From NCBI GenBank assembly GCA_051294905.1, contig CM119372.1, forward strand, positions 37,140,001 through 37,204,000: DNA of 64,000 nt. Reading direction: 5' to 3'. The notes beneath the pieces are model-generated. The model was not told the origin of the DNA. It did no database searches and saw only the letters and a program-made list of their open reading frames with translations. Each line of letters starts with the position of its first letter. The first letter of the stretch is position 1. The stretch is from Botryllus schlosseri. Taxonomy: Eukaryota. Position numbers and translations under genes: made by a program. Shown here piece after piece: positions 1,243 to 60,789 of the stretch.

Positions 1243-1405
1243 CGAACGTTCCAATGACGAAACCTTCCATATCACAAACCACCTGGCCGAGGTGGAAGTA
1301 TCCCGCTGCAGTGGTAGTTATATTAATACACCCGCCAAATAACGCACTGCAAAAGTCAGTCACCGCCAGATTCTGAAGCATGAAATGTATGGGTCGTTGC
1401 AGATT
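1243..1405 (-). CDS. Opsin B (c-opsin-like GPCR), coding exon 2 (ICL1-TM2-ECL1-TM3 start); gene continues beyond left edge
   Basis: tttcag acceptor, then NLQRPIHFMLQNLAVTDFCSALFGGCINITTTAAGYFHLGQVVCDMEGFVIGTFG. Aligns without gaps to rhodopsin LRTPLNYILLNLAVADLF...GCNLEGFF (C110, E113). Length is 163 nt, identical to opsin A exon 2. The donor at the homologous position is GC. Confidence 0.9.
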
Positions 1406-1598
1406 CTGAAAGTCGACAAATGAATTCACTCCAAGCAACTGTCTGATAAGCAATAGTCTGAAACGAGAGGCCTTCAACATTTTTCTTCTTGCTTTTGATA
1501 TTCATTACAAAATGATTTGTTACTTAACCCGTATTAGCATTTGTCATCAGTCTTACATGTGAAGAGCTTCTTGGAGGTACAGAACTTCAATATACAAT

Positions 1599-2148
1599 TA
1601 AATAGTATATTCATATTGAAATGAACCCGAATATTTTCGGCTGACACTCGTCAGGGGTAATCGTCAGCAACTAGTAGAGAATTGAAAGAACATTGTATAT
1701 CAACAATCGTCACAAAATATGACGTCACCAGCATGAAATTTCGAATGAGAGAGCGTTCAATGTACTATTTTTAGGTGATACACGAACTCCTTTTGTTGAC
1801 AGAGTTTTGGTTGGTGTATTTTGATAAAAGTTGATTCCAAGGCTATCGAGACGACCGATTTCGAATCGTAGGTCGAGACCGTTCACAATTCCATTTGTGT
1901 GCCTTGGAATCAACTTTTATCAAAATACACCAACCAAAACTCTGTCAACAAAAGGAGTTCGTGTATCACCTAAAAATAGTACATTGAACGCTCTCTCATT
2001 CGAAATTTCATGCTGGTGACGTCATATTTTGTGATACGATTGTTGATATACAATGTTCTTTCCCATTCTCTACTAGTTGCTGACGATTACCCCTGACGAG
2101 TGTCAGCCGAAAATATTCGGGTTCATTTCAATATGAATATACTATTTA
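1599..2148. mobile_element. Foldback/MITE-like palindromic element in opsin B intron
   Basis: Arms 1599-1843 and 1901-2148 are near-perfect inverted repeats around a 57-bp spacer. A diverged single arm recurs at about 18625-18760. Confidence 0.8.
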
Positions 2149-2406
2149 GTCTTACATGTAATCTAAGTTCTTCTTTGAATCTAAATCCGTATATGCTCTG
2201 AGTGAATACGTTGCAAGAGTCATTGGAATTGACGACTATGGCCGTGTTGCTTCGGCAATGTCAGATATATTATATTCACGTTTGTATTAAAGAGTGATTT
2301 TATCATATTAGATTTTGCGATCTATCGGATACCAATTTTGACTATTGCCCGTTCCAACAAAGCCTCGCATACCTTCATTTGTCGACAAATAGGAAGGTGC
2401 ACTGAC

Positions 2407-2589
2407 CTTGCTCTCATAGGAAGTCACTAGGAATATTCCGTTCCCGAGAAGAGCAAATGCGGTGATCGTAGTAATGTAACTGAACAGTAAAAGGTAAACA
2501 AAACGGGGAACCGGTTTTATTCGAAGATTCGACCAATCGGCCACACTACGGAGAGCAGTTCCATTGTCGTACGACGCTAAATGAGACAT
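2407..2589 (-). CDS. Opsin B coding exon 1 (N-terminus and TM1)
   Basis: MSHLASYDNGTALRSVADWSNLRIKPVPRFVYLLLFSYITTITAFALLGNGIFLVTSYESK|gtcag. Contains an NGT sequon and the TM1 GN motif. The phase-0 donor is at the same position as in paralogs A and C. Confidence 0.88.
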
Positions 2590-2592
2590 ATC

Positions 2593-2657
2593 CTGAAATT
2601 CAAAGTATTGTGCATCTCGATATATAGATATCGTCTATTCCACTATATATAGCCTAC
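2593..2657 (-). other. Probable 65-nt 5'UTR intron of opsin B
   Basis: Minus-strand CAG|GTAGG donor at 2657 and aatttcag acceptor ending at 2593, 3 nt before the ATG. Confidence 0.5.
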
Positions 2658-3832
2658 CTGATACAAACTCGCTATCTCCCCGTTGCTTTGATAAAGTGAT
2701 TGCGTATATTAGCTGGCTTTCGCGAGAAGTGTTATAGTTGGAGGCGGACAAAACGGCGCAGCAACTTTATTTCCCGTCTTTTCACTCAGCATCTTGCGGG
2801 CGAACCGGAAAATCATGTGATGTTATTAGTGGACTACCAAGACTTATAATAATTATCGTAAATTACGATTGCATGAATATTCAATGAGCGACGAGGGCGA
2901 ATAGGCTATATATCAAAAGCTTAGATCCCCTTAAGGTCTATGTCCGCACGGTTATAAGCCGTGTCAATCAATACATTTGACGTGCAGTTCTCAGTGTCGC
3001 AAACGTCGATGTAAGACAGCAGTCGCCAATTCAATATGGGTTAAGGGTCACTTTTCAAACTTCGTAGGCTCCGCGGGCCGCAACCACCCATGTCGAATAC
3101 ACGAATAAGTTATACACTTGGACGAAATTTCCACGATACGTTACTGAATACACAGTTTTGCTCTCTAACTCATGTGATAGATATATATTTACTGACTATA
3201 TATTGGTCAGTGCACAAGGGATGAGCAGATTTGCACGGATTCAGATCATGCGATGGATTGTCATGCTAATTTCCATGGAGCCAGATTATAATATCGATCA
3301 AATGGGACGTCACAATTGAAGATTCGTGATGTCATCTCGGCACAAAATCCTGATTTGCGGCTACGTATGATTCCTCATGTGTGTCATATCTTCTGCGTTG
3401 AAAACTGATGTGATGTCAAACTCGTACAAAACCAAACCCCAACATTATTAGTGACTATCACAAGTTCACTTTCCAATGGAGGTGCGTGGTCAATAACGAA
3501 ATACTGCTCGTTTTCAGAAGTACATGTACTCGAGCAGTTTTTCCTAACTACGTTACTTACGCAAGTGGTTAGATGGTTACAATGTTACTTAAATTTCAGA
3601 TGTTATACTTCTATTTCAACACGATTGCCAAGGATGACTATTTCGTTCACTTCTACGTTCCACTAAATAGCCTACACCGACGTTCGATTTTTGTGCTCTC
3701 ATATAATGGCGATCTCGTTAATATTTCATGCTATGATTAATGATGTAAATCGGAACATCGAAATTACAGATCATCATATTCATTAGATATACCGATATTG
3801 GGAATATGTGTCTCTGAGTAGACAGTGTTGGC

Positions 3833-4156
3833 TAGGGTTACCATACGTCCTCTATTTAAAGTTGAAAGTGTCCTGGGAGGACGCCTAAATGTCCTAATTT
3901 TTGGGAATTTGTCCTCTTTCTCTCGGACAAGTAATAAAATGCCATGATAAAGGCGACTCCGACGCAGCGAACGTCATAACATCCGTGAAAATCCGGTAAA
4001 TTGGGAGTTGAATAAAAGTGATGACCCTTTTTTCAGTCAACACAGTACTATAGGTCGTACAATATTCAAAATCACCATTTTTCTTGTCCGGTGCTGGAGT
4101 TTTCAGAATTTATCAAAAGTGTCCTCTTCTTAGGATCTCAAAATATGGTAACCCTA
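3833..4156. mobile_element. hAT-type MITE (TAGGGTTACCA termini)
   Basis: TIRs tagggttaccata / tatggtaacccta; exact 8-bp TSD gtgttggc. Confidence 0.9.
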
Positions 4157-4480
4157 GTGTTGGCTCAATCCTACGAATCATCTCACCGATATCCAAAGCG
4201 TGGTATGTAAATCAATACTAGATCTGTTAGCTACGCGAGTGCTTGCTTTCATCGCAATCAAAAGCTAGTCAGCCACCAAATCACTTCAGCGTGGACAGAT
4301 TTTGAATTTGGTCAATGGGTATTAATTTGTGATAAACGGACTAGTTGATAACTTGCCACTGTAGGAACTCGTATCCTACTGAGTAGTTAACTAACTAGGT
4401 AACTCTCATTGCGATACTGAGAACGCCAGACAATTAATCTTTAATCACAACAACAATAATCATCAACATGCTATCTGACT

Positions 4481-7400
4481 ATAGATAACTAACCTACGGA
4501 TAGATGGGCAACACGTGATTCACGGTCGAGAGCCCAGATGCCGTTAGATTTGTTGTCGCTTCATAGCATGAAGCGGCAGGTTATTGGCCAGATTGATGTT
4601 TGGTGCAGATAGGATATAGGGCAATCACAACAGGTTATTTAGTGATACAGTACACAGGCACTGGCGCGGCTATCATTGCATTAATATCAGGAGGATATTT
4701 CATGAGCAAAATAAGTCATGATATTCACTCTATTATTAATTGGTTTCAATATTGATTTCGGCTGAGATTTCCTTGAACTATTTTGGTTTGTATAATCATT
4801 AGAGCGGCCATGTTTTGATATGTCAAAATCGTAGTAGTACGAAAGTTGCCTATTTCTGAGCCAAAAACGTTTTTTGATGCTTAACTACTTCGTTAGGACA
4901 GCTATAGTTCCTACCAGAAATGAAGATCGAAGAAGTTGGCTACAATTTTAACATTATGTGGTCAAAAAAAACGCCCTAATAATCAGAGATAGGTTTTAGT
5001 ATGTATTGCTAAATAAAGAGAATATGTTTTCATAATCCAGGCATAATTAATATGGAATAATTATATTTCGAATTACTGACTGAGGATATCATGTGTGCGT
5101 AGGGCTTGGCACAATGATTCTCGAATCTGAACATAATATGATTGCGGTGGAGGATGCATCAACGAGTCACAACTGGAGCTATTTCTCTTCGAAGTCAGCT
5201 GTCATAAAATAATCCAGTTTTTGGGCAACATAGTCTTCTTGCTTTGCATGTTGATACTGCCTAGCCATGCAAAGATTCCTCCTATGTAAAAAAGAGGTAA
5301 ACCAACACTATGGCTGAAACCTTGACGTTGGTGTGTTGGCTTTTGTCCAATATCAGCTGGCAGTCTACTTCGCAATGGTGACATATCAAACTGACACATA
5401 TATCCTCAGTATTTATTATTTTCAATATTTAATATTATCTTATATATATATTATTCAATCGACTTTCGCTTGGGTATTGGGGATGCATCGTAGGGCTTTG
5501 CCGATCTTTTCATTGCCTTTGATTGGGTGACATGATGGATGTCGTACGCTAGCTGTGGAATATCCGGATTTGTCCGTCTTCTCGCCATTTGTCTCTGCAA
5601 TCACAATCCCAGTCAATAATCTAACGCCTTATTACGTTTAAGTATCTTACTAAATTTCCAAAAAATGCCTCTAGCACATCTTGCGTGAACGTTCCAAGGG
5701 CCAACTTGGGCATTTCTTCGATGAGACGATCGCATAGACCCACCATATTCCGTGACGTGAAAATTAGGCCCAGGTTATTGCTGGGACAAAGAAGATTCCA
5801 TTAGATGGACTCTTTACTGATCCAAATCCGTAGGCTCCTGAAAGGCCAATTTTTCTATGCGCCGATCCTCAGCATCTCCTCAAGGTAGCTTTACCTGATA
5901 ATTTTAGATCATATTATATTGTAGTACGGTGAGCACTACCAGAGGTGGTCAAAGTAGTCAAGAAAGCTACTCAAGTAGAAGTACAAGTAGCGATGAAAAA
6001 ATCTACTCAAGTATGAGTAGAAGTACTTCTTCCATAAGCAACCTAAAACTACTTGGAGTAGAATTAGAATTGACTGACTTTAAAGCTACTCAAGTTAGTA
6101 GTTTTGAAAACTATCGTAATTCGTTCGCATGGACTGCCAAAAGCTATGAGGAAGGAGTAAAGAGCTTGATTCATATTGATGCATCCCAGGCGGGGTCAAT
6201 TTTTGACAGAATAGGCAGTCGTCCATATCATGGGATGTAAATGATAGTATTGATATGGAATGTGCTACTAATTCTTTGTTTACTTGAACACCCCGTTTTA
6301 GAGAATATCATGGCATGGTGCCCTCCCCCATATTATAAGGCGCCTAGTTTAGTCAATGAGCATTGGTGACAAGTTGTGTCGGATACGGCTTCAACACTTT
6401 GCGCGATTAGTAAACGTTAATTAAAAATATGGCAGTTCGTATGTTTTCAAAATGTTTACACAATAACTGAAACAATGACAATAATGCCCGTAATTTGGAG
6501 AAAAATACAAAAAAAGCGGTAATATATAATGTGTCGTTTGTCCAGAAAGTTTCAACGGTGGTCTGCTAGAACAGGTCTAAGTCAAACGTTAAAAAAAGTA
6601 AAGGTTCACTTTTCCGGATTTGGACACGTCATGTTACTGCTAGATTGCGAAACGATAGTATCAAATGTTATGGTGGGGGGGGGTATACTTACTGTGATAC
6701 TTTCGTTTAAACATATTTGTCACGCCGTATCTACTGCGCGCGAAGCGCAACGAAAATTTTGGGTATTACTTGACTTATGAAAATTAAATGTTAGTAGGCC
6801 TACCATGTGAAAACAGACCCGAAATTCCATACCCGATATATTCTTATATCCTAACAGCCACACGGAACTCTCTATTCATCGAAAGCAGAGGGATCTCGAT
6901 ACATGAACATGAATGGGAGAGGGCAAGATATATTATGGACGGATATCCAAAAACTGTTTGTCGTGGAGTCGCGCAGCCTGTCACTTTACCAGTCCGGATT
7001 TACATTGGCCCATGTTGATTTAAATCCACGATCTAAAGTAGGCAAAAAATATGTTTGACACCTCTGGTCTAGATCAGTGCTTTTCAACCGGTTGGCTGCG
7101 GCCCACTTGGGCCGCGAAGACATTTTAAGAAACGATGATAGATCCCAATTTGTAGATCTGTTCTCTACCACGAAGACCAAGTCGAAAAATGTCAATATTT
7201 TCAACGTTTTCTTCCACTTTTGGATGATGATTCTGGAACATGTAATTGACGGGCCTGCGGGGCTCGTGCACTTTCGGACTAAACTCAATACAGCCTTATG
7301 GAGAAAATGTGATTTTGGTCCCAAAGTGCATGAGTCCCACAGCTATTCGCTCTATTGTCTGTAGTGGTTTGAACGTTTGTCGCGAAAGGGTGTGTGGTGG

Positions 7401-9334
7401 GCCACGCAATGAAATTTAGATGGAAAGTGGGACGCGAACTGAAATAGGTTGAGAAGCACTGGTATAGATGATGCGCTTGCAATCATTCACTGGGCTGAAA
7501 TGTGACCGTTTTTCATGCCAGATGAATGTCAGTTTGGCTACAGGTGTATTGAGTCACAAAGTTGGAAATTGTTTGAAAGGGATGGGAGCAACCGGTACAT
7601 CTGATTTTGTTCTGATGATGGAAAGGTATGAGTAACGAATTTTCACTTATATAACAAGGGGCTTGATTTTATGACCTAAAACAGATGGTTCAATAATCAA
7701 TGTCGTCACATGCCGCATTAGTTATCCGATATGCAGCCTGGACGATGAAAGAATTGCATGGCTGGGTGAATTTTCGGATCGATTATTGAGTTGGAAGGTC
7801 AGTTCCTCATAGTTATTATTCGAGGTATTTTCGGGTCATCATGTAATTTAGAAATATGCTTCAAGTCGTGGTGAGCCAAAACGAATGATGGCAAAACCCA
7901 CAATGGAAGGCCTAATTTTCACGTCACGGAATATGGTGGGTCTATGCGATCGTCTCATCGAAGAAATGCCCAAGTTGGCCCTTGGAACGTTCGCATTTTT
8001 CAGTCGAGCTCAGCTGCGCGCGCCTCTTCAGATGCACTGTCTAAGAATTATCAAGGTGAAATACACTAAGAAAAAGTTGATCAAGTCCCTGCATTAATTC
8101 GATTTTTAGTACGCATTGTATCAATATTTTTAAAAAGTTTATTTAGACTCTCGCGGGCCGCACAGAACGGTGTTGCGGGCAGCATGCGGCCCGCGGGCCG
8201 TAGTTTGCCCACCCCTGCGTTAGATTATTGACTGGGATTGTGATTGCAGAGACAAATGGGGAGAAGACGGACAAATCCGGATATTTCACAGCTAGCATAC
8301 GACATCCATCATGTCACCCAATCAAAGGCAATGAAAAGATCGGCAAAGCCCTACGATGCATCCCCAATACATAATATAATATTAAATATCGAAAATAATA
8401 AATACTGAGGATATATGTGTCAGTTTGATATGTCACCATTGCGAAGTGGACTGCCAGCTGATATTGGACAAAAGCCAACACACCAACGTCAAGGTTTCAG
8501 CCATAGTGTTGGTTTACCTCTTTTTTACATAGGAGGAATCTTTGCATGGCTAGGCAGTATCAACATGCAAAGCAAGAAGACTATGTTGCCCAAAAACTGG
8601 ATTATTTTATGACAGCTGACTTTGAAGTGAAATAGCTCCAGTCGTGACTCGTTGATGTATCCTCCACCGCAATCATATTATGTTCAGATTCGAGAATCAT
8701 TGTGCCAAGCCCTACGCACACATGATATCCTCAGTCAGTAATTCGAAATATAATTATTCCATATCAATTATGACTGGATTATGACAAACATATTGTCTTT
8801 ATTATAGCAATACATACTAAAACCTATCTCTGATTATTAGGGCGTTTTTTTGACCACATAATGTTAAAATTGTAGCCAACTTCTTCGATCTTCATTTCTG
8901 GTAGGAACTATAGCTGTCCTAACGAAGTAGTTAAGCATCAAAAAACGTTTTTGGCTCAGAAATAGGCAACTTTCGTACTACTACGATTTTGACATATCAA
9001 AACATGGCCGCTCTAATGATTATACAAACCAAAATAGTTCAAGGAAATCTCAGCCGAAATCAATATTGAAACCAATTAATAATAGAGTGAATATCATGAC
9101 TTATTTTGCTCATGAAATATCCTCCTGATATTAATGCAATGATAGCCGCGCCAGTGCCTGTGTGCTGTATCACTAAATAACCTGTTGTGATTGCCCTATA
9201 TCCTATCTGCACCAAACATCAATCTGGCCAATAACCTGCCGCTTCATGCTATGAAGCGACAACAAATCTGACGGCATCTGGGTTCTCGACCGTGAATCAC
9301 GTGTTGCCCATCTATCCGTAGGTTAGTTATCTAT
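4481..9334. mobile_element. Large foldback element with ~1.2-kb inverted arms (Mutator/Foldback-like)
   Basis: 4481-~5627 is the near-identical reverse complement of ~8217-9334, and 5687-5770 pairs with 7909-7992. Flanking direct repeat tatctgact / aatctgact (9 bp, 1 mismatch). Confidence 0.8.
7075..7461. mobile_element. hAT (Buster-like) MITE nested in foldback spacer
   Basis: TIRs cagtgcttttcaacc / ggttgagaagcactg; TSD gtctagat / gtatagat with central TA. Confidence 0.85.
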
Positions 9335-12164
9335 AATCTGACTGGCACCTTTTGAGCGTGAAAGTCAGAGCGGTACGAATGTATCGGAATGCTAATATTC
9401 TAGCGGTAACGCGCCAGGAATAAACATAACACACTTGCGAGTCGCGATCGCTTGGATATAGTTTGTAGGTGTATTATGTGCAGCTACACCACTTTGATTT
9501 ATATGGGAGCAATACTCCACGATGAAAAGATGCGTGGCTCGCGACTCGGCGTGGGCAATATCGAGTACATGATTGATTAATTTCTGAATGGAGTATTATA
9601 GGCTCCGATTATGACTCATTGTGGCGTCATAAATGTGTGGAAGACGTGGGAACTTCGAATTAGTAACTTTCAGGCGACCGCGAAGAATATAATTACAGTG
9701 CTACATCTCGTGAAAGATACTTTGGTATATCTCAACCATATCCATTTCATTGTACTTTGTGATAATGGTGAGGGTTGATCACGAGATTACAGATACGCCC
9801 TTTCCACAAACGCACGTCGCTTTGTACTACAGGTTCGTATTATCAATTATGACCAATATAAATTTAAGGGCTTTCATATTGAAAGATAATATCGAAACTA
9901 TAATCCACGATTTTAAATTAAAACTTAATAGCAAGTGGTGTACAATCGGAGTCCACAAAACATCAAACCCTATTACTTGACAAGAATCATAGGAAGAAAT
10001 ACTAGATCCAAATTCGAGAACTCGGATCATTGTGACTAATAGGTTCCTGACCCCTTATCTAAATGCTGAAATGTTCGCAGCCGGAAACGGATCAAAGTCG
10101 TTCTTTGGTGGAGAATCGCAGAATCACAATGGTTTACACATAAATCACGAATATGAACATTTGTTTGCACCATCCTAGAACCTAGACCTAATTGACATAT
10201 CGGAAAGAAAATGCAAATGCAAATTAACATGAATGCTCTTCATCGATGCGGCACGCAAGTTCGCCTGTGACTTACCATGTTCGTGCCATTCGACCGTCTC
10301 GTGGGCAGCATACTCGTGTCGATCGGCCCCTTTCATTGAGAATTCAGGAAATTATAAGAAAATTCCAGCCCAATACCCGACGGAAGCGACTCGGATGCAG
10401 AATCGATAATTTGATTATTATTAGAATAATAATAATCAACATATATATTGACTTCAACAAATTGACAGGCATCTGCTACATTGGATATTCGATAAAATAA
10501 CTTTGTCACCAATCAATCTTCGAAAATGAATCTTCTCGGCCTGAAACTCTCCATCTGGATGTACCATCCGTAATCGCATCAAGGAAACTCATCATCAGGC
10601 AAGATTAAAGAGAATCGATCGAGTTGTACAGCACGCTAAATTTCATGCTCCTACACATGCTAATCCTGATAGGCATGATGGTATTACCACACTTGCAGTG
10701 ATTGATTCTAAATTAATGAGACTATACACAGTCGGACTATATATTGACTACATACAGGCTCAGGTCGGATATATATGGAGAGTTCGCCGTGCCTCTCTTC
10801 TTAGAATTTATATGGAATTGAATGATATTAGGCGAGGAACGCGTTTGCGTTGTTTTGACTAGTTGTGAGGCACAATTGGAACAGTATGCATACGCTAGTA
10901 GTGCGCTAATTCAATATTACTTTGACAATTCCTTTATCAGACTTTTTGTATGTTTGAGTATATGAAATGTTATCATCATATCCTAGTACTTTATCATGAT
11001 ATATATACATATATATTCTATTATACTTTGGTATACCGACGGCGAAATTATATTGGATCATTTTCTCAATATTTCTTTTTATTATCACGGCTTCTTTTTT
11101 TTACTAATCCCCGCATCCCAGAATCACAGTTTCGGCTAGTTGAGCAGTTCGGTTATTGTGCTATTGACGTCCCACCCTAGTGTGACCCAGATCCTCAATA
11201 TCAAGATATTTATGTTAGATATGGCCATTGTTAAGCTTTGTGGTGACCCATCTGATGTTTCTTAACCGTTTCCATAGCGAGGACCCCCGAATGTTTTTGA
11301 ATGGTTGCACGGTTTCCCAACCGAAAACTTTGGGAAGCTGATGAGCAGAAGTCAGCATTTCCGCCCAGTCCTAATCATATTGCGGTTAGGTCTATCAGTT
11401 GCCTGTAAAGCTACCTGATTACTAATTAATGTTATCTAATTTCATGGTTACCCGTGGAAAGTGCTGAAAGTAAGGACTTAAGTCAAATATAAAGACACTC
11501 GTTTTAAAGACCAATGGATTTAGAAAGTTGTAATTTTAACATTGCCTTTCATTTGATCTCTGGTCAAGAACCCAAGCCCACAACGTTGACGTGGACAAAT
11601 GCCACGGATGCATCAACATATTTAGATACCGCTTTATAGAATCGCATTGTGACAGCCTGCGACCATGCACACTATAAAAATGTCTACGCAATTGCATTTC
11701 ATATGTAGGCCTATACCGTATATTTATTCGTCATATACCCAACGACTGCAATAGGTAAACGAATACCAGCAGTGAAAAATGGTGTTGAAAGCAAAATATG
11801 TATTCTCACGAGTTTGTAATGATTAAACCCTTGAAAAGTAACGCCTTTTTTCATAGCTGGTCTTTAGTATCCGACAAACAGGTTTTATTCCAAAAATACT
11901 ATTCATTGCGAAGTTTATTTACGTTTATTTATATTTGAATGGTTTCCCTTCTTGGGTGTGCCTACCCAATGATCGGGTATGTGGTTCTTTAGTATTTCAA
12001 TTCTACATGCATCATTATTCTCTGAATATTTATATACTTTCAACGTTGAAAACTATGAACCGCTCTCTCTTTATATATATATATATATTTATTTCTCTCT
12101 TATCAAGCAGTTGCGGCACAAGAAATGAATGATATATATATCTGACTACAAAGGATTCGTGGCG

Positions 12165-12356
12165 ATGTCGCTAATGACTGATTCTAGTAACGAAACTGTC
12201 GACTCTCGTATCAAGATGGCGTTAAATTGGTCAGAACGTAACATAGAACCGGCGCAGCCTTACGTGTTAATTCCCGTGTGCGTTTACATGACCACCGTTG
12301 CAGCGATGGCTGTCACTACAAACGCGATTTTCATCGTGACTTCGTTCAGGAGCAAG
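12165..12356 (+). CDS. Opsin A exon 1 (N-terminus and TM1)
   Basis: MSLMTDSSNETVDSRIKMALNWSERNIEPAQPYVLIPVCVYMTTVAAMAVTTNAIFIVTSFRSK|gtgag. The start could alternatively be 12129 or 12174. Strongly similar to 57257-57439. Confidence 0.88.
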
Positions 12357-12686
12357 GTGAGCAAAACGTGTTGTCTATGGTTCAGTGTTTTAATTTTTTT
12401 CAGACCTGAGGGCCATGGCCCACTCGGGGGTCACAGGAGCAAATTCCAAATTATTCAGTTGGTTCCTCAGATTTGTAGCGTCAAATTTTGTTCGCGGTAA
12501 TCGGTTGACTCTCATTAGGGATCTTGGTCCTGACTCTTGTTAGATAGAGTTAGAGAGCTTGCTGATTTTGTCAGCCATTAAATACAGAGGGCGATATTAA
12601 TAACCATACAAGTCATCAAGTTATAGCATCTGAAATTGCCAAACTTGCATTAGATCGATCGTCTTCATAAGGAAACCCCATATGAC

Positions 12687-13140
12687 TAGGGTTGCATTTA
12701 AAACAAACGGTGATTTGAAACGCTTTGTTTAAAAAATGTTTTAAACAGTGTTTTAAAAAAAAGCCTTTGAAAAAAAAACAAAATGGTGTTTTTTAAGGGG
12801 TAAAATTATGCCATTATTGTGTAATACTTAACAAAAACATGTTGTATGAGCCTACGGACAACTACCACCCGATATAGCCTACTTATGTCGATATGGAATG
12901 GTTGCAACCCTCAAATTAGTCGGTTCAACAGCAATAGTAGCCTACATATATTTCGTCAAAAGAGCTAATTTTACCCTATATATTCAATTGTCAATGTCAA
13001 TCCACCATGGCGTCACAGTTGTTTATTCGTGACGTCATGGCTTTCAAAAAAACATAAAAAACAATAAAAATATGTTTTAAATAATGGCCCTGTTTTAAAC
13101 ATGCTTTTTATCAATTGATTTTTTTTTATATGCAACCCTA
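12687..13140. mobile_element. hAT-type MITE (TAGGGTTGCA termini), opsin A intron 1
   Basis: TIRs tagggttgcat / atgcaacccta; exact TSD catatgac. Confidence 0.9.
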
Positions 13141-13429
13141 CATATGACTGTAGTCTTCAAGGACCGAGTATAGCCAGTACATATCTGGATGTAGAAATGT
13201 GACGAAAACACAATCTGATTGCTTGCAAATTTGAACATTTTGAAAATGTGACGTCTGCATTGAATAAGTTCTGAAAAGCACATATAAAATAACTAATAAT
13301 CCTAAACTAACACAGAAGAAATGAAGTGTTCCGTGGGTCATATGTCAAATCGTTTATTCATCAATAATGTATGTAACCAAATAAAGAATTATTTTCACAT
13401 TTCGACCAGGACTATTGATAGGTGAGCTC

Positions 13430-13990
13430 AGGGTTGTGACCAGGTCACAAAGCTCCCAGTCACAAGTCAATCTAACTTTTATAGTTTTGACTCGAGTCAA
13501 GTCGAGTCATTTTCAATTCACCACCGAGTCAAGTCCGAGTCCAAGTCATCGAGCAGAGGTTCGAGTCCGAGTCATGGTATTATGACTCGACTCCGAGTCC
13601 AAGTCATTGTGTTGACTGACTGCTCAGTTTACAGCTAAAGTCTTGTTAAACCCACTTATTGTAACTCTGTTTAGCGATATCGAATGGTTCGCATTAATAA
13701 TATAATAACTTTCCTCACTTTCAACAGTTTCTTGTCGCATTTTCAGGTACCAGTACCAATAGACGAAATCTCAATAGGGTGGTTACTTTACTGTTCTTCG
13801 AAATTACAATGAAATGTCGGTCTTGACCGTCTGAGTCTCGAGTCATATGACTTGGTGCGAGTCCTGCGCAATGACTCAAGTCGAGTAAATACACAGACTG
13901 ACTCGAGTCGAGTCGAGTCATTTCGTATTTGAGAAAATGACCTGAGTCAAGTCGAGTCATCAGAAAACCGTTACAATTACAATACTGGGG
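13430..13990. mobile_element. GACTCGAGTC-rich MITE family copy (boundaries approximate)
   Basis: Subterminal gactcgagtc/gagtcaagtc arrays shared with 18920-20060, 20710-23055, 30110-30320 and 32832-33807. Confidence 0.65.
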
Positions 13991-14118
13991 GAGCCACAGT
14001 ACAAACAAACAACGCATTATTACGTGATAATAAGATGTTAAAGCAACTCTTAATAATTTTTCGTCGCGGGCCGGATATAGTCGGTAATAAAGTCGTTTCG
14101 ATGTTTTCTGGAATTTAG

Positions 14119-14281
14119 ACTCTACAGAAGCCAATACATTTCATGTTGCGTTCATTGGCGATAGCAGATACGTGTTCCGCATTTATCGAAGGTTTCATGG
14201 GTGTCATTACGACTGCAGTAGGTTACTACTACCTGGGGCGGATTGGTTGTAACATTCAAGGATTTATGATTGGGACATTCG
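14119..14281 (+). CDS. Opsin A exon 2 (TM2-TM3 start; E90, C110, Q113)
   Basis: tttag|TLQKPIHFMLRSLAIADTCSAFIEGFMGVITTAVGYYYLGRIGCNIQGFMIGTFG|gtaag. Phase-1 intron in G121, as in vertebrate rhodopsin intron 1. Confidence 0.93.
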
Positions 14282-15269
14282 GTAAGATACTATGATTTAT
14301 TTTTGTCATAATAGCTGTGTTACGGGGATTTCATATACAGGGCATGGTCTCGATTATAGGGTTTGTATTGGTTGTCCGACATTTAGGTGTGCAACACAGT
14401 GACGCACGACACTCAAGTCCGGGATTTCATAACCTAAAACTAGTCTCAACCCTATAATCCAGGGGAGTTCATGTGTTCAACCTTTTTGTTATTCACGACC
14501 GCTTCCGATTACATAGCGGGCAGGCGGAATGGACCAAGTGATCCCGGGGATTCACCGATTAAATTGCTAGGTTGCCTAAAGAAAACGCTACACACCAAAT
14601 TTAGCTCAATTTTCACCATAGTCGAAGCCGACGAAGAGCCTATTGAAATTTATTACTCAATATAAAAAATTGGAAGATTTTTTTGTAATTTTACTCTAAA
14701 CCTCATGAAATTGTTGAGTTGTCTGCGAAAACGATGCAAATCAAATTCAATGCAATTCCAACCACAGATGCGAAGTTATTTCATCTTTTCAATAATAATT
14801 ATGAATTTTCCCACCGTCAATGATATTCTTGCAAATTCAAAACTTTCAACTGCTATAACTTCGCTTCTACGAGTTGGTATTGAACTAAAATTGTTTTGCA
14901 TCGTTTTTTTTTATACAACTTGACAATTATATAGGGTTGACAGTAAACATCTCTTTGATAATCCCGGTTGTGCGAAAAAGTGTCGAGACGGCAGGTTTCG
15001 TTGCGTTGGGAGCAGCTGTTCACACTTCCATTTTTGTGCCTCGGAGCACTGGCGTAGCAGCATGTGCTGCCGCCCCTGGCTCTCGTCGCCGCCCCTCCCG
15101 TAAGTAGACCGCAGCAAATTTCGACATAGATTCATGTTCAAGCAACCTTGTCAATAAAAATAATTACAAACAATATGCCGCGTCTCAGCCTTGCCGTCTC
15201 AACGTTAATAAGGCCGAAAATAATAAAGACAAGAAATAGCGAACGATTGTATTGTGCAAATAGAAAATC

Positions 15270-16070: not shown

Positions 16071-16204
16071 TATCAATTCGTGTTTTAGGAATCAGCGCGA
16101 CACTATGGCTTTCGATTGAAACCTGTTTGATTAAATTTTAGCTCACGGGACGCCAGCTATATGACTACCATTTAACGCTTCTTTTAGACGCCTGTGTACA
16201 CCGT

Positions 16205-20101: not shown

Positions 20102-20206
20102 GCATTGCTAATTTGACATTGATATGTCTGCTGTCAATATCAAGATATCTCGTAATATGTAAACCTTTTGGACACTATGAACTGAAGATGAGCCATGCAA
20201 AATACG
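20102..20206 (+). CDS. Opsin A exon 3 (TM3-ICL2)
   Basis: ttttcccag|(G)IANLTLICLLSISRYLVICKPFGHYELKMSHAKY(A)|gtgag. Corresponds to rhodopsin [23 protein letters not shown]. Phases 1/1 are compatible with the neighbouring exons. Confidence 0.92.
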
Positions 20207-22258: not shown

Positions 22259-22297
22259 GTTTAGAATTTTATATTACTATAGTCAATCATTGGTGCA

Positions 22298-27999: not shown

Positions 28000-28220
28000 C
28001 TGTGATCGCCTCCTGGATTTGGTCATTGATTTGGAATGTCACTCAAGAAATCAACGACGGATATGACCTGGAAGGATTCGGGACGCATTGCGCGCCGGTA
28101 TGGAATACAGAGCGGCCTACGTCGAGAACATACTTGATTCTGCTCGTTAGCTTTTGTTATTTCGGCAATATCATCATATTGCTGATATGCTACATAAAGA
28201 TATGGATGGCGATGAAAAAG
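28000..28220 (+). CDS. Opsin A exon 4 (TM4-ECL2-TM5; E181, C187)
   Basis: (A)VIASWIWSLIWNVTQEINDGYDLEGFGTHCAPVWNTERPTSRTYLILLVSFCYFGNIIILLICYIKIWMAMKK|gtaatt. Contains the YxxEGxxxxCxPxW motif. Phase-0 intron after residue 232, as in rhodopsin intron 3. Confidence 0.93.
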
Positions 28221-29774: not shown

Positions 29775-29915
29775 ACAAGACTGCACTCCACAACAGCGCA
29801 GCAAGCTGAGAGAGCAGTTACCACGACTATTATCTATATCGTCGTTGGATTTGTATTCTGTTGGACTCCGTACGCAGGTTTATCCATATACAATCTCGCT
29901 CGACCAGGATTTCCG
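29775..29915 (+). CDS. Opsin A exon 5 (ICL3-TM6)
   Basis: acag|TRLHSTTAQQAERAVTTTIIYIVVGFVFCWTPYAGLSIYNLARPGFP|gtaaa; CWxPY motif. Confidence 0.92.
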
Positions 29916-29969
29916 GTAAAATTGACGATGGTGACGGGGCCCATAAAATTACGAATATGTTTCTTTAAG

Positions 29970-30059
29970 GTGAACCCATACATGAAAACCGTATGTGTCT
30001 ACGTGGCAAAAACTTCCACCATACTCAATCCGATAATCTATGCAATCAAGAACCGACAG
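29970..30059 (+). CDS. Opsin A exon 6 (TM7 with K296, NPxxY, NRQ)
   Basis: ttctttaag|VNPYMKTVCVYVAKTSTILNPIIYAIKNRQ|gtata. K296 codon AAA at 30009-30011. Intron after Q312, as in rhodopsin intron 4. Confidence 0.95.
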
Positions 30060-35145: not shown

Positions 35146-35232
35146 ATACGCAGAGAAATGATTGGGAGCATTAGATCGAATAACGCAAAGCCAGAAGAGA
35201 ACGAAATGGTTCGGATCGATCGCGGCCAGTAG
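35146..35232 (+). CDS. Opsin A probable exon 7 (helix 8 and C-tail, stop)
   Basis: ttatcctcacag|IRREMIGSIRSNNAKPEENEMVRIDRGQ*. Gives NRQ|IRREM against rhodopsin NKQ|FRNCM. Total CDS 999 nt, 332 aa. Confidence 0.7.
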   Translation: MRREMIGSIRSNNAKPEENEMVRIDRGQ

Positions 35233-38946: not shown

Positions 38947-39046
38947 NNNNNNNNNNNNNNNNNNNNNNNNNNNNNNNNNNNNNNNNNNNNNNNNNNNNNN
39001 NNNNNNNNNNNNNNNNNNNNNNNNNNNNNNNNNNNNNNNNNNNNNN
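38947..39046. other. Assembly gap (100 N)
   Basis: Run of exactly 100 N, typical of a scaffold join of unknown size. Confidence 0.99.
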
Positions 39047-41186: not shown

Positions 41187-43152
41187 GAACACGTTTACGA
41201 AATCGTAAAAGGTAATTTAGCGAAATAGAACACAGCCGATTTTGCATCATACACTGTTTGTTTGTTTGTTTTGGGGTATTCATGGTGTTTGTCGACTACT
41301 ATGGTCATTTACACCAGGCCGATATTCTTCTTATTTTCCGTAACTGCCGACTTATAGCACGGCCCACCTCTAGGCTTTTTGTAAGACACCGCTGACGCGG
41401 ATGAGGTGGCGAGGAGGAGCCTAGGTAAACCTCCAACACTTAGGTGTCGGAATTCGGAAGTCGACCTCGGTCGGACTCGAGCCCGCACCCATTGGTGTTG
41501 CAGCCGCGGATTATACCACTGCGCTATCTCGCCACAGCATCATACACTGGAATTTTGCTTGTGTTGACTAAAGAAAAACGGTCATCACTCAGGCTCGATT
41601 TACTTTTTACTTAGTACTTTTCGGTCAAAATTCAAGGTCTTTCTGGGTATTTTAGGCTAAAACTGACCACGATTTAAAAAAAAAGAGGACATAATGAGTA
41701 TAGGGATAGTGTGAACCGCATGACGTTACGTGACGTCATATTGCCAATTTTAACCCTAATTTTCAGTGAAGTGATAGCCTATTTTAATGTACATTGTACA
41801 CGATACCTAGCGACGACTCGGGCTACATACTGTAGGAGGGTTACCATTCGTCCTCTTTTAAGAGGTGTTGTCCTCTTTTTTGACTTTTTTGAAAGTGTAC
41901 CGGCGGATGCCCAAATGTCCTCTTTTTTGAGAATCTTGGTTAAAGATAGATCAAAATTCGGCTGAGATACAGTAAATCAGCACTGAAATAACGCTCCGGC
42001 GGCTATTTTTGCTCCGGTATCGTAAATTTTGAAAAAGTGTCCTCTTTTTAGATTTCCAAAATATGGTAAGCCTATTATAACATCTTTGTTGGAAATTTAT
42101 TGCATTTCAACTGCTGGCCACTATATGCATGGCGCTGGCAGCATAACAAATTCACCACTAAACGAGCAGGCACTTTGATAATTTCAAAAAATCTACTTGC
42201 ATTGTTACAAAACTTTGCTCGAATATCCAGCTCACGTTTGTGAATATTCAGTGACTCTCTGCAGTGAGTTTGACCCGCAATCACACAACATCAAGAGCGA
42301 AATACACTACATGTAGGTAGTCAGCGAATGATGCTTATTCAACCAATCAATGATATATATATAAAGAATTCATCGATGTCAACCACATACCAACGTAGCA
42401 ATACTCAGACGCCGAATACATTGTCCAGTCTGGCCTAGATCGTTAAGGCGTAAGCTTATAAAGCTTATATTCCCTTGCAAGTCCTCGTCGAAATTGTTGG
42501 CAAAGCGACGGAAGAAATTGAGTTTATGAGATTATTATATCATTTGGTTGCCACAGTTGATACATTCGGCGACGTTCAAAACGTCAATATTTACTTCAGT
42601 ATCGTGGCATTATGTCAGGGTTATCATATTCCGGATATCTGAAAAGCGGACACTTTTTCAAAATTTACGATACCGGAGCAAAAATAGCCGCCGGAGCGTT
42701 ATTTCAGTGCTGATTTACTGTATCTCAGCCGAATTTTGATCTATCTTTAACCAAGATTCTCAAAAAAGAGGACATTTGGGCATCCGCCGGTACACTTTCA
42801 AAAAAGTCAAAAAAGAGGACAACACCTCTTAAAAGAGGACGAATGGTAACTCTCCTACAGTATGTAGCCCGAGTCGTCGCTAGGTATCGTGTACAATGTA
42901 CATTAAAATAGGCTATCACTTCACTGAAAATTAGGGTTAAAATTGGCAATATGACGTCACGTAACGTCATGCGGTTCACACTATCCCTATACTCATTATG
43001 TCCTCTTTTTTTTAAATCGTGGTCAGTTTTAGCCTAAAATACCCAGAAAGACCTTGAATTTTGACCGAAAAGTACTAAGTAAAAAGTAAATCGAGCCTGA
43101 GTGATGACCGTTTTTCTTTAGTCAACACAAGCAAGATTCCAGTGTATGATGC

Positions 43153-43432
43153 TGTGGCGAGATAGCGCAGTGGTATAATCCGCGGCTGCAACACCAATGG
43201 GTGCGGGCTCGAGTCCGACCGAGGTCGACTTCCGAATTCCGACACCTAAGTGTTGGAGGTTTACCTAGGCTCCTCCTCGCCACCTCATCCGCGTCAGCGG
43301 TGTCTTACAAAAAGCCTAGAGGTGGGCCGTGCTATAAGTCGGCAGTTACGGAAAATAAGAAGAATATCGGCCTGGTGTAAATGACCATAGTAGTCGACAA
43401 ACACCATGAATACCCCAAAACAAACAAACAAA
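43153..43432 (+). mobile_element. Full-length tRNA-derived SINE (mirror copy at 41257-41536, minus)
   Basis: A-box tagcgcagtgg, B-box-like ggctcgagtcc, ctgcaac loop (possibly tRNA-Cys origin), (caaa)n tail, 13-bp TSD cagtgtatgatgc. Confidence 0.88.
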
Positions 43433-46400
43433 CAGTGTATGATGCAAAATCGGCTGTGTTCTATTTCGCTAAATTACCTTTTACGATTTCGTAAACGTGT
43501 TCTAGGGATGGTGTGAACGTGAGGTTCACGTTCGCGTTCTGTGTGCGAACCTCAGAAATTTAGAGGTTCGCGTTCACAACAGAACCTTGGTGGGTTCTGC
43601 ACTGTGAACCTTTTTCATATATTACAATTTTCACTTCATTGTAACATCGTTGGCTTAAATTTATTGCACTTCAACTGCAGGCCACTCTATGCATGGCGCT
43701 GGCAACGTAAATAATCAACACTAAACGAGCATGCACCTTGACAATCTCAAAGGTTTTACTTGCTTTATTGCAAAAGTTTGCTCGAAAGATCCAGCTTTCC
43801 GTTTGTAAATATTTAGTGACTCTCTGCGGCGAGCTTGGCCCCCCAATCGCACAACATCACGAGCGAAATAAGCTATGTAGTCAGCGAATGATACTTATTT
43901 AACCAATCAATGAGATTGATATAGTTTTCTGAAGTAAAAAATCTAGCAGGCGTACGGGGTTAATCTTGACTTCATGTCTACTGTATCATTAAAATCAAAA
44001 CGCTGCGATTGAGATGTTGGCTACTGCTGTATAACTTGTTAATGGGGTAATATCAGTAGCAAGCATAGATACCCATTTCCCACTCCGCTCAATATCAATG
44101 CAATACTCGGATGCCGAATACATTTTCCGACCTGTCATACGAAAAAGGTGATTCGAGTCTGACTTGAGCCAAGTCATGACTCGAGTCATCCCAACACTGC
44201 TACAAGGCTATATCGGCATCTTCCTTGCCCGGCGGCATATGCACATCACGCACTCATGGTATGCATATGCGCAGATCGTGTGCGGTATATCATGATTCGG
44301 TGTATATGCCAAAGGACAAAAATAAACTTTGTCCTTTCCTTTCCTTCTATTCCCTGGTAAGTCCTCGTCAAAATTGTAGGCAAAACGGCGGAAGATATTG
44401 ATTTTATGGGATTATTATGTCATTTGATTACCCTAGTTGATACATTTGGCGACGTTTAAAACGTCAATATATACTTCAGCATTGTGACATTATGTTGCCC
44501 GAGTCGTCGCTAGGTATCGTGTACAATAATATGGGCTGTCATTTCATTGAAGGATATGGTTGGAATTAGCAATATGACGTCACGTGACGTCATGAGGTTC
44601 ACGTTCGTGTTCACACAGAACCTTTTTGAAAGGTTCGCGTTCACACGAACCTGAACCTTTCAGAGGTTCACACCATCCCTAACGTGTTCTTCTTTCCGGT
44701 CCCAAAACATGGGTCGCGATTAGTATATATTTGAGTCGCGATCGCACCAAAGCGTTTACTAAATTTCTTGTAACAACAAAATTTATTCGCATTTGGAGCG
44801 ATATCCTGTGCTCAATTTGTGCATATACATGGTCACTGTGCTGAGTGCTATAGTGGATAGGTGAGACACGCAAAAAAGTTTCTAAAATGACGTGATCGTG
44901 AAAATGTGCAGACCTTTGTATCACACAAGTAGGCTTGATGTCATGCTAAGATATGTCAGACATTGGTTACTCTGTAAAGGTCTAACTTGGACAGGAGGGA
45001 GGGAAAGAGCGCGGCCGTAACTGCTGCACCCGATATTTCTAGGAATGCGAAGAATTTACAGAAATGAATGAACTGTATACACAATTGTGAATGAGCAGGA
45101 TATTCCTATTATCGCTTCACACCTCCAGAGACTGTTTAGCTGCTTTGAACTGAGGGTGCACAACAGTATTTCGAGGAGGCCCTTTCCACCCACGCCGGGG
45201 AGCTGGACGACAGGAAGTTTTGGCCTACATGCGGCTGCGGCCAAAATGCGGTGCGAAATAACGGTAAATACGATAAAACCCTGGTACAAAATGGCCGTTG
45301 CTGGTTGGCCGAAACCGTAAATATTGATATATCCGGTCTTAGTTTGGTCGTCACCGATTGGAATTGACCTTGCAATTTTAGCCCCGCTGTACAAATATAG
45401 CCAACATAGGAAAATAATGCATCCCGTTTGAAATTGCGTCACAGATGTTCCATAGAACTGCATTGCGTACAGCTGGTTGTCCGCGCATTCTCTACTTCAT
45501 ACATGCCCGTAAATACGTAGCATACTGACAGTAAAAATGCATTCATATCGATGTGTGAGGCTTGGGTCGCGAGATGAAATAAAACTTAGATATGGGTCGC
45601 GGTGTAAATATTCGAGAACCACTGCATGTAACGTAACCGGCAGATATTACTGGTGGTGTATGGGAGGCGGATTAATATTGTTGGACCATGAGCGTCTCAG
45701 CTGAATTCGTAATTGACCGCACTCGTATGACACAGTACTCATTGAGCCTATAACATCCTGTTCCTGAATGTTATTAGGATCTACGGATAGATTTCGGTAT
45801 CAAATAACGCCACACTCACACGCAATATTGTTGACCTACTGCCAGGGAAATCGTGTGAGCCCATGAACAAGTTGGTACCACGTAACCCACATATACTTTG
45901 TGGTTTTATCAGGAATCATTAATTCTGTTAATACGGGATATTTCAAACTTGTGATATCGCTGCGCCCGGTTCCCGAGTACACATGTAGATGTGGCGGGGT
46001 GAGTCATTATATTATGCCTACTCACAACACATTGAGATAATTCAAACAAAATATTCGACTATTCAGTCACTGTCATGCAAATGGGGATAGGGAATTCAAG
46101 ACAATTTTATCAATGATTGAGGTTGATCACAAAAATATTGGTATATAAGTACCGTTATTCAAAGTGGAAAAAATCCCAACACGAACCTCCGAAATGAGCT
46201 AGTTCAACATGAACACGAACAGAAAGTTCGCACAATCGATATACCCCTGGTCCCATTGAAATAATGAATGGAAATAGAACCCGCGTCGGCTGCTCATCTT
46301 TGACCGAGATTATTTGAACTCGCCTACTACCCAATGCAACTCCCAGCGGAAGCGAATGCTATGCTCAAAATATTAGTGTATTAGTGATATTCATACATAC

Positions 46401-54469: not shown

Positions 54470-54886
54470 TCCTAGAGTATAGGACTATATATAGGCAATA
54501 TATATTGTCAGACCGGCTATAGTTCGATACTACACTGTTCGTCCCTTTATTAAGGTTGATATCGTTAGGAAAGGTGATTTGCAGCTTTTCAAGTAGTTCA
54601 GCGGTACAGGATTGGAACAATGGACACAATGTAGCAAATGTAGGACGGCTATTGGATTCGATCCTGTGCTCTTGTTCAGTTGTGGTGGAGCAAATATCAA
54701 GTTGTTATTCTCATTTTGCCATCCGCTAACAAACAATCATATTGTAACTTACGTTCAATCATACGTATTGGGATATTTGCACGATATAGACATCCTATTT
54801 TTATAAAAATTTACTTTCAAAGTGGCGTTTTGGGATTGTTTAATCCTTGAGACCCAGAATGGCAATTTTGGTGTGATGATATAGTC

Positions 54887-56009
54887 TAGGGTTACCATAT
54901 TTTTGTGAAGCAAATTCCGCACACTCTGTAGCGCCCACTAGCGGATTTAAGAAGAGGTATTACACATTGTCTGTCAATATGACGTCACACTAGCAAAGCA
55001 TTGTCAAACGACTGTATACAGGAAGGGAGTGGAACATAGGTCATGAATTGGACCCTCTGTAATGTGAACTCTGCTGATTGCTACTTGCTATGGTGTGCAA
55101 TAGATTTCTCCACTTGCCGGATGAAATCGTCTGGCGGGCCGTGTTTGGCCTGTCAGGATTGTGTTTGACAGTCCCGCTATACTGTTAGGTCGATGCGGCT
55201 ATCTGATTGTTTGTTTTTATTTTATTCAGGTCCGAGACAACATTTTTCCCGCCCCCTTCCGCCCAAAAAAAGCACTGATCTCTAACCCACCATAGGGTAA
55301 TCGATGTAACTTCTTGGGCAATTACTATATGCATTTGGCTGTGAAATTTTATCAAGGAATTCTTCAATAATTTTGATTTTTTTCATTGGGCTACTATAAA
55401 ATGCACCAGCAGGTTGCTCATCCGGTGATTTCCAGCCTTTAATGGTCGCGACCTCATTTCAAACTTAAAAATGTTCCATGGCCCTGGTAAAAACTTGATA
55501 AGCTGATTATTAAAAAAATTCAGCTTGCCCAAACTTACTCCCGGCCTAGGACGGTGATTGCGTCCAACATCATCGCGATCCCCAGATAAAGGTAAACGAG
55601 CCCAAGAATTTGAAACCACTGTCTGTGACTAAATCATCCAATCGGCCCTAACCAACTCTAGTACTATACCGTTAGCTTATAATTGCGATTACCGTTGGAC
55701 TTATTTTAGTAAATTATGGTAATTTATATTAATTTTGATTGCATTTGTTTGGCGAATGTGATGCCAGGTGCCCGTACTAATACCAATAAACGTTGCATTA
55801 CCTCGCGCGCAGCGCGAAGAAGAATTTCGAATATCATAAATCTGCTTGAAAAAAATATTGTTTATGTTGACTTACGAAAAACTTTTGAGCCTACTTCAAC
55901 CTTTCAAAATTCCGGACATTTGGGCATATTTTAGGAATTCCTCCCGGACGCAGATTTTTCAGTGAAATTCCGGACATGTCCGGGAAATTCCGGACGTATG
56001 GCAACCCTA
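54887..56009. mobile_element. TAGGGTT(A/G)CCA-terminus hAT element
   Basis: tagggttaccata / tatggcaacccta; TSD atatagtc / ataaagtc; ccggac subterminal repeats. Confidence 0.8.
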
Positions 56010-56039
56010 ATAAAGTCCGATTCTTTACGTTATTCAGCA

Positions 56040-56560
56040 CATTGCATCCACCCTAGTTTCCGTACAACATCTTCATTGAGCTACCTGAAACTGCCACCCG
56101 TTCGGTTGAATTCAGCTTTAACAACAATATGTATCGCCATATTGATGCTGTTGCCATGGACCTTGCTTGACAAATATATTCGTTGGTTCCAGGAAAACAA
56201 ATTAATTTCAAATGTAAGCAAGCCGCGTATGTATATTGAATACGTTGATGACACGTTTGCAATTTTCGACATGAAGAAGAGTGCAATGTTTATTTAGATT
56301 CTTTACACAACTTGCACCCGTCTCTGAACTTCACCATGGACAAAGAGTTTAGCGGGTCACCAGCCTTTACCGCCGTATGACGGAAAGGATCAACACCAGT
56401 ATCATCACTTTAGTATATAGAAATCCAAAATGTAAAGGTCACTTCATCAGCTGGGGCTCATTTTGCCCAAACAACGAAAATTAAATTTGATATCGACACT
56501 TGTTCACCGGGCGCTAATAATCTGTTCAGATGTGCTTATTGCTTTTCAAAAGGAGAATAT
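56040..56560 (+). pseudogene. Penelope-like retroelement reverse transcriptase remnant
   Basis: Across frameshifts: EFSFNNNMYRHIDAVAM...NIFVG.QENKL...PRMYIEYVDDTFAIF...LHNLHPSLNFTMDKE...VYRNP...LNLISTLVHRALIICS. These are typical PLE RT and thumb motifs. Confidence 0.85.
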
Positions 56561-57256
56561 TATATATAAATCCAATGTCGCTGTGATTGTCGGTATGTGG
56601 GGCGCACATCGTTGCGGTTGACCGAACCCCAAACTAGAAAAACAGCATGTGCCTAAATGAATTAGATCAGTCAGTCAGTCAGTCAGTCAGTCAGCCAACC
56701 AACCTATACATCGTTCTGCGCTTGTTCGTCGGTGCACAGAAGTAGGCTGTCTGCAGTGGGGTATAAGAGGCACACGAACAGTCCACGAGTTAAGAAATTC
56801 TACTGTAACGAATGTAGCGCTGAAAGCGCTATTCAGCAAGCACACCGCTCCCGTGCGCTTTGAAATCGCAATATCAAATTCCGGGATTGTGCAAAAATAA
56901 ATTATTTATAAATGAACGCAGTGTTATCATCATTTCCAACAAACATTATAACTGACGTCCGTCAAATCGTTTTGTTTTGACCCATGTTCAAAATTATGTG
57001 TGTTGTTTCCATATGTATAGACATTAAAGTTGATTTTCCATTTCGAATGCGCCAATCTCGTTGGGCAATAAACCCAATGGTCACTGGTGTGGTTTTGTTT
57101 TCGTGCAGGTATAAATGTTTTCTGAGTATTTATGTACTTTTACCGTAGAAATAAGAGCCTAATAAACTTCAACTGTTACCAAGCAGCTGTGACACACGAA
57201 GCAAATGCGAGCCTAACCGAATGCTTCACTGAACGGGACTAGTTGCGATATCACGG

Positions 57257-57439
57257 ATGGCTGTTGCAAGTAACGAAACGTACAACTCTCGTATCAAGAT
57301 AGCGCTGAATTGGTCGGAACGTTTCATAGAACCTGCTCAGCCTTCTGTGTTAAATGCTCTGTGCGTTTACATGACCTTTGTTTCTGTGCTGGCTGTTACT
57401 GCGAACGCTGTTTTCATCATGACATCGTTCAGGAGCAAG
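57257..57439 (+). CDS. Opsin C exon 1 (close paralog of opsin A); remaining exons not found in window
   Basis: MAVASNETYNSRIKIALNWSERFIEPAQPSVLNALCVYMTFVSVLAVTANAVFIMTSFRSK|gtgagc. Same donor context as opsin A. Upstream 57030-57250 is homologous to 11930-12160. Confidence 0.85.
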
Positions 57440-60720: not shown

Positions 60721-60789
60721 TTCTATATAAAGGGAAATGAAGACATTCAGGTCGTTACGATAATTGAACAATTACAACACAGCAGCATC

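Follow-up and report, generated by a model that had tools for sequence, protein, structure and literature searches.

Neighbouring ciliary-type opsin genes in Botryllus schlosseri with reciprocal residues at sites 90 and 113

Introduction

Here we describe a group of opsin genes in a stretch of 64,000 nucleotides from Botryllus schlosseri (assembly GCA_051294905.1, contig CM119372.1, positions 37,140,001 to 37,204,000), which is called the window throughout and is numbered from its first letter. The window holds three opsin genes, B on the minus strand and A and C on the plus strand, of which A alone is complete. In rhodopsin numbering, gene B carries glycine at site 90 and glutamate at site 113 (G90/E113), whereas its neighbour A carries glutamate at 90 and glutamine at 113 (E90/Q113). 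This reciprocal state is the main point of interest; clustering of opsins and a head-to-head layout are ordinary on their own, and the residue swap is the interesting part.

Pocket residues

The pocket of A comprises E90, G94, Q113, G118, I122, E181, H186, A188, K288, V292 and K296, and that of B includes G90 (codon at 1336), N94 and E113 (codon at 1267). The codons of A are GAA at 14188 for E90 and CAA at 14257 for Q113, with E181 at 28071 and H186 at 28086, and the site numbers were taken from an alignment that is gapless between D83 and C110. A and B thus differ at sites 90, 94 and 113, as had been anticipated in a sequence-only reading of the window, which held that the paralogs differ at chromophore-pocket sites. 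The counterion of the vertebrate visual type, E113, is present in B and absent in A. Contigs of sequencing run X3 cover exons 1-6 of A with 0 differing letters (identical over 11900-12707 and 13938-14573), so the codons of A are not base errors; X3 may come from the same individual as the assembly. K288 (codon at 29985) and H186 of A both lie near the extracellular lid of the pocket, and K288 is kept in P0001, a relative described below.

Locus organization

The features of the locus are listed in Table 1.

Table 1. Opsin exons and associated features of the window
Feature	Position	Strand	Remarks
Gene B exon 2 (helices 2-3)	1243..1405	-	Pfam 7tm_1 E 3.9e-6 over 1244-1435
Gene B exon 1 (N-terminus, helix 1)	2407..2589	-	61 codons, GT donor, phase 0
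B-A divergent intergenic region	2590..12164		repeat-rich; 1.15-kb inverted repeat pair
Gene A exon 1	12165..12356	+	first ATG 12165, second in-frame ATG 12174, phase 0
Gene A exon 2	14119..14281	+	D83, E90, C110, Q113; phase 1; Pfam 7tm_1 match
Gene A exon 3	20102..20206	+	S134-R135-Y136 at 20140, replacing E-R-Y; Pfam 7tm_1 match
Gene A exon 4	28000..28220	+	W161, E181, H186, C187, Y223; without P171 and P215
Gene A exon 5	29775..29915	+	E247, W265, P267, Y268
Gene A intron 5	29916..29969	+	54 nt, GT-AG, in frame, stop-free
Gene A exon 6	29970..30059	+	K288, K296 (30009), NPxxY, N310-R311-Q312
Gene A exon 7 (helix 8, C-tail, stop)	35146..35232	+	predicted from splice sites and frame only; no Pfam match
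100-N scaffold gap between A and C	38947..39046		3-kb 99.4% inverted repeat begins 2 bases on
Gene C exon 1	57257..57439	+	GT donor

Copies of one first exon had been claimed for all three genes, and they were found at the positions and on the strands given. The three exons align without gaps across 61 residues, with 43 of the 61 residues of A kept in C and 19 in B. A tblastn search of the window with A recovered exon 1 of C at an E value of 4e-23, exon 2 of B at 6e-17 and exon 1 of B at 3e-6, so that the likeness of the first exons is far above chance. The architecture described for them stands in three of three copies in its outer parts, an N-glycosylation sequon near the start and TS(F/Y)(R/E)SK followed by a GT donor. 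The middle motif, written as WS..I.P, fits none of the three in that form and has to be corrected to WS...I.P, with three residues between S and I.

B and A are contiguous, with no gap, and the head-to-head arrangement over about 9.6 kb agrees with a measured ATG-to-ATG distance of 9,576 bp. At 9.6 kb and filled with repeats, this layout is no evidence for a promoter shared by B and A. The Otx-type motif TAATCC occurs 0 times in the 1 kb upstream of each of the three ATGs, which is uninformative at a frequency of 0.5 per kb in the window. C had been called a closer tandem duplicate of A; the closeness is borne out by the residue counts (43/61 against 19/61), and the tandem part hinges on a scaffold join, since the two genes are parted by the 100-N gap and it is this join that decides where C lies with respect to A and which way it points. 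The window has a GC content of 40.5% and an observed/expected CpG ratio of 1.08. CpG is thus not depleted here, unlike in vertebrate genomes.

Gene models and receptor features

Gene A has seven exons at 12165-35232 (+) and encodes 332 amino acids in an intact frame, all six introns being GT-AG. Its exons 2-6 match Pfam 7tm_1 at positions 15-65, 71-95, 107-181 and 192-260, in order, and exon 2 of B matches positions 12-65. The retinal-binding lysine K296 and the C110-C187 pair are present in A, together with the signalling residues R135, Y223, E247, W265, P267, NPxxY and N-R-Q at 310-312. An AlphaFold model of the 54-residue exon 2 alone gave one helix and leaves the pocket uninformed, while the ESM Atlas returned family matches to 7tm_1 for exon 4 (up to 0.90), the top matches being without names.

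The introns of A fall at sites 66, 121 (phase 1), 156, 232/233 (phase 0), 282 and 312/313 (phase 0). Removal of the 54-nt intron 5 restores the spacing of rhodopsin, and the matching intron of P0001, of 56 nt as judged from a frame shift, must be spliced in that relative; on these two grounds the short intron of A is very likely spliced as well. Matches in read-through open reading frames (ORFs) break at the same intron sites, with V following site 312 in 54 of 70 and Q preceding the helix 5-6 loop motif in 24 of 33. We take site 121 to be an intron position of vertebrate opsins. The introns at 121, 232/233 and 312/313 are common to Opn3-like rows too, and for this reason they are not diagnostic for vertebrate-type c-opsins (VVNVO), where c-opsin stands for ciliary opsin.

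For gene B, tblastn found no exon 3 within 1-1242. An open stretch at 178-11 (-) was considered as this exon and rejected, as it has neither a tblastn match nor an acceptor. No further opsin exon of C was found up to position 64000, which sets its intron 1 at no less than 6.5 kb, against 1.76 kb in A.

Family placement and relatives

Among solved structures, the best relatives of A exons 2 and 5-6 are headed by rhodopsin, and exon 4 scores 29-32 bits with cone opsins, 24 with squid and 18 with spider. Over its whole length, the A protein has about 30% identity with LWS and Rh1. A tree of helices 6-8, built from 21 rows and 73 columns, places A within the vertebrate-type c-opsins (Rh1, Rh2, SWS, LWS, pinopsin, VA and parapinopsin, as against Opn3/TMT and pteropsin) with support of 98/95, on a long branch and with no stable sister; a topology joining A to Opn3-like rows was not rejected in the approximately unbiased test (p-AU 0.117). 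The rows include no tunicate opsins and are mostly nameless fragments, those with names being Rh1, LWS, VA, Rh2 and parapinopsin-like; the class labels of the nameless rows, outgroups included, are our assumption. A joined QB-like rows at 82/82 in a first tree, and this grouping was gone in a second one, from which P0093 (wrongly cut), P0094 (very long), P0005 and the near-duplicates P0049, P0079 and P0128 had been left out. The original label of ciliary-type opsins can probably be sharpened to three paralogs of a ciliary (vertebrate-type) opsin, with the Opn3-like placement kept in view at its p-AU. Vertebrate-type opsins are reported in the accessible part of PMC11893379 from vertebrates and tunicates only; taken together with the undepleted CpG, this points to a tunicate as the source of the window.

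Homologs were sought with weak searches that covered longer proteins only. Exon 4 of A retrieved none among 2 candidates and a profile of exon 2 from A and B none among 77; an exon-1 profile gave one match among 816. This match, P0126, is a read-through ORF with a fourth type of exon 1, which agrees with A at 46 of 61 residues and with C at 43 of 61. Another read-through ORF, P0001, shares 29 of the 30 residues of A exon 6, including K288 and K296. P0126 and P0001 may represent C, further paralogs or orthologs of another species. In the read-through ORF P0038, a helix-6 exon seems to end at the position in extracellular loop 3 where exon 5 of A ends, and it perhaps belongs to a more distant tunicate opsin.

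Repeats and mobile elements

Two inverted structures lie on the left side of the locus, a 1.15-kb repeat pair of 95.6% identity between B and A (4474-5627 and 8217-9341) and a near-palindrome of 550 bp and 92.5% within intron 1 of B (1599-2148). Both are probably non-autonomous DNA transposons, and both are far younger than the split of B and A. Intron 2 of A contains a tRNA-like repeat head at 16213-16291 (+), to which thousands of RNA reads map that continue into other sequence, 2744 reads of run X14 and 1015 of run X18 carrying a template-switch adapter at the 5' end; we read it as an abundant small RNA or a short interspersed element (SINE) transcribed from other copies. Searches of the window for transfer RNAs with ARAGORN and against Rfam gave no match. 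Past the scaffold gap, 39048-42073 and 42617-45639 form a 3-kb inverted repeat of 99.4% identity. It may be a foldback element of recent origin or else an artefact of the assembly, and a portion of the repeat is found again, at about 85%, in 35961-36948. About 1 kb upstream of C, at around 56200-56600 (+), there is a broken reverse-transcriptase-like fragment with a YVDD motif. Intron 1 of C holds a gag-like ORF in two overlapping frames at 60646-61780 (+) with a CCHC zinc knuckle (Pfam E 3.6e-7), which resembles the frameshifted ORF1 of a retroelement without long terminal repeats (non-LTR), with little of ORF2 left.

Proposed history and counterion mechanism

We propose that an old inverted duplication separated B from the ancestor of A and C, and that a younger direct duplication separated A from C. 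B would keep the older arrangement with glutamate 113 beside the retinal Schiff base; E113 occurs both in the visual opsins of vertebrates and in a tunicate opsin, so that by parsimony the state of B is probably the older one. The lineage of A would have lost E113 and gained a glutamate at 90, so that its proximal acid would have shifted from helix 3 to helix 2. E90 of A, by itself or jointly with E181, would then keep the Schiff base in its protonated state, and H186 may weaken E181, as R186 does in a box-jellyfish opsin. A would bind 11-cis retinal at K296, with Gi/Gt-type signalling suggested by its family, and would be a visible-light, probably blue-shifted pigment whose spectrum and photoproduct are unlike those of B, so that one locus could give the animal several light inputs. 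We give somewhat less than an even chance to the full reading, which requires both that B is a functioning E113 pigment and that E90, with or without help from E181, keeps the Schiff base of A protonated. That E90 would be the counterion of A in the strict sense is a more doubtful claim.

The counterion sites given as confirmed in animal opsins in the accessible part of PMC12401545 are 94, 113 and 181. For the site matching 89/90, a change from Lys to Glu or Asn in fly Rh3 is described as turning an ultraviolet (UV) pigment into a visible-light one, and fly Rh5 has Asn there, not Glu (PMC4571949, in part). Openly searchable full text yielded no paper on this cluster and none on E90 as a natural counterion; most subscription papers lie outside that body, as do supplements, where opsin tables of genome papers could list these genes already.

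Weighing of the alternatives

Several observations weigh against the proposal. In two bulk RNA runs (6 and 13 of every 100 reads sampled; tissue and stage unspecified), whose comparison covered A, the bin with exon 1 of A has a depth of 0 and the bins with exons 3 and 4 a depth below 1. No splice of A is found among the 15 joints listed from bulk RNA, with 3038 more joints beyond these. Among the 11 runs that contain exons 4-6 of A, no RNA data set is listed. The protein of A, on its long branch, is without P171, P215 and P291 and has S134 in place of E134; given these losses, A may fold or signal in an unusual way. As E134Q rhodopsin is constitutively active (PMC13076888, in part), A with its S134 may have a raised basal activity. 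A gapped local alignment with HMMER put the glutamate of A at 89 rather than 90, an ambiguity that is likewise pointed out for this site in PMC4571949, in the part available, so that the glutamate called E90 here may sit at 89. C is represented by exon 1 only and its pocket sites lie beyond the window, while B, represented by exons 1 and 2, runs off the left end, with the K296 site outside.

How many distinct pigments the locus holds depends on the status of C and B. The 100-N gap between A and C would suit a reading of C as an allelic haplotig of A, the chance of which is practically nil. Exon 1 of C is 80.3% identical to that of A, with a synonymous divergence (dS) of 0.47, a nonsynonymous divergence (dN) of 0.17 and a dN/dS of 0.36 over 61 codons (p 0.008, Fisher test), a sign of purifying selection. 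Neither intron 1 nor the kilobase upstream gives an alignment, and intron 1 of C is at least 6.5 kb long. By comparison, a contig of run X8 and A disagree at only 2 positions in 266; the listed one, 12320, is a third codon position and leaves Thr unchanged. The exon-1 divergence earlier put forward against a haplotig is hereby confirmed, and the flanks are unrelated. It is also very unlikely that A and C are true paralogs whose adjacency or orientation is a product of scaffolding: the right-hand contig does open, after the N gap, with one arm of the 3-kb 99.4% inverted repeat, a typical break point, but a wrong join is unlikely to have brought in, at a distance of 22 kb and with matching orientation, just the closest paralog, and the adjacency of B and A is free of gaps. 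If B were decaying, only A, and perhaps C, would be alive and three divergent pigments would shrink to two similar ones. At the conserved phase-1 position of G121, the exon-2 donor of B (1233-1243, -) has GC where A has a strong GT, it matches the consensus at 4 of 9 positions against 6-8 for eight other donors, and the nearest GT, 10 bases further, would change the phase. The absence of an exon 3 from 1-1242 would also fit decay. The codon tests of B exon 1 against A and C are not significant (p 0.3 and 0.87). Against decay, exons 1 and 2 of B are both open, its acceptor and first donor are strong, and GC-AG introns are a known minor class. Exon 2 of A and B has a proportion of nonsynonymous differences (pN) of 0.28 against a saturated synonymous proportion (pS) of 0.75 (p 5e-7), the mark of long-term purifying selection, and introns of A reach 7.8 kb, so that an exon 3 missing from 1.2 kb is to be expected. 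Either a GC-AG intron or decay may account for the donor of B, and on this evidence we regard decay as rather unlikely.

The other question is which acid serves the Schiff base of A. E181 is still present in A, and opsins with Q113 and E181 exist without E90, the combination having arisen in parietopsin and in QB opsin (PMC11893379, in part). A might therefore use the ancestral E181 counterion as parietopsin does, with E90 protonated or active in spectral tuning only. In a tunicate opsin, E181 acts together with E113 (PMC6004467, in part, citing Kojima 2017), and it could accordingly take over once E113 was lost. We consider this possible, if unlikely; a new acid on the pocket face of helix 2, where E113 has been lost and site 186 is basic, would be easier to understand as compensation. 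Alternatively, A might be bistable and sensitive to UV, its Schiff base being unprotonated in the dark and E90 or E181 serving the photoproduct only. QB opsin, with Q113 and E181, is described as both UV-sensitive and bistable in the same part of PMC11893379, and the basic H186 and K288 near the lid of the pocket could neutralise the acids, yet fly Rh3 changes from a UV to a visible-light pigment when 89/90 carries an acid (PMC4571949, in part), and we judge this alternative improbable.

Comparison with known opsins

The combination in gene A, a proximal acid in helix 2 with no E113, E181 present and a basic residue at 186, resembles that of JellyOp from box jellyfish, in which E94 is the counterion and the basic R186 isolates E181 (PMC6004467, in part). 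JellyOp differs in that its acid is at 94, one turn from E90 of A, which has G94 there, in having Arg and not His at 186, and in belonging to another opsin clade. A likeness between the two would be convergent.

The rhodopsin mutants G90D and E113Q likewise bring together an acid at 90 and a neutral residue at 113, and in work by Rao from 1994 G90D is said to be able to replace E113. In rhodopsin, G90D is a constitutively active night-blindness allele (PMC5095885 and PMC12470097, each in part), whereas A carries its acid at 90 naturally, in an intact gene with about 30% identity to rhodopsin. Parietopsin and QB opsin have Q113 with E181 kept, as A does, but both are vertebrate subfamilies, and an acid at 90 is described for neither in the accessible part of PMC11893379.

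Opsin1 and Opsin2 of Ciona are, like the genes described here, vertebrate-type c-opsins in a non-vertebrate and paralogs with possibly different roles. Opsin2 is described as switching on in a subset of Opsin1 photoreceptors in late larvae, timing attachment (PMC13170672, in part), and this switch is a precedent for the use of several paralogs. B shares E113 with the tunicate opsin whose E113 works jointly with E181 (PMC6004467), whereas A with Q113/E90 is unlike Opsin1 and Opsin2. Two such genes, Ci-opsin1 and 2, are given for Ciona in the accessible part of PMC3826523, against at least three copies at this locus, and three opsins with three unclassified opsin-like genes in that of PMC2396169.

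Conclusions

The sequence-only reading holds as an observation and in part as an interpretation, the lineage-specific expansion that it proposed being a possibility. Opsin paralogs grouped at one locus are nothing unusual, and it is the neighbouring states G90/E113 and E90/Q113 that set this group apart. The shift of the counterion from 181 to 113 that led to vertebrate vision poses a long-standing question. Shifts of this kind are rare, two being documented as of PMC6004467, in the part available. With an E113 paralog beside an intact Q113/E90/E181 paralog, the locus is suited to a direct test of pigment retuning, and its c-opsin copies are more numerous than the Ciona model would lead one to expect. 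If the proposal is true, A would be the equivalent in nature of the G90D change known from night blindness. An E90 counterion would add a site beyond 94, 113 and 181, and both end points of a counterion shift would then lie at one locus in the sister group of the vertebrates.

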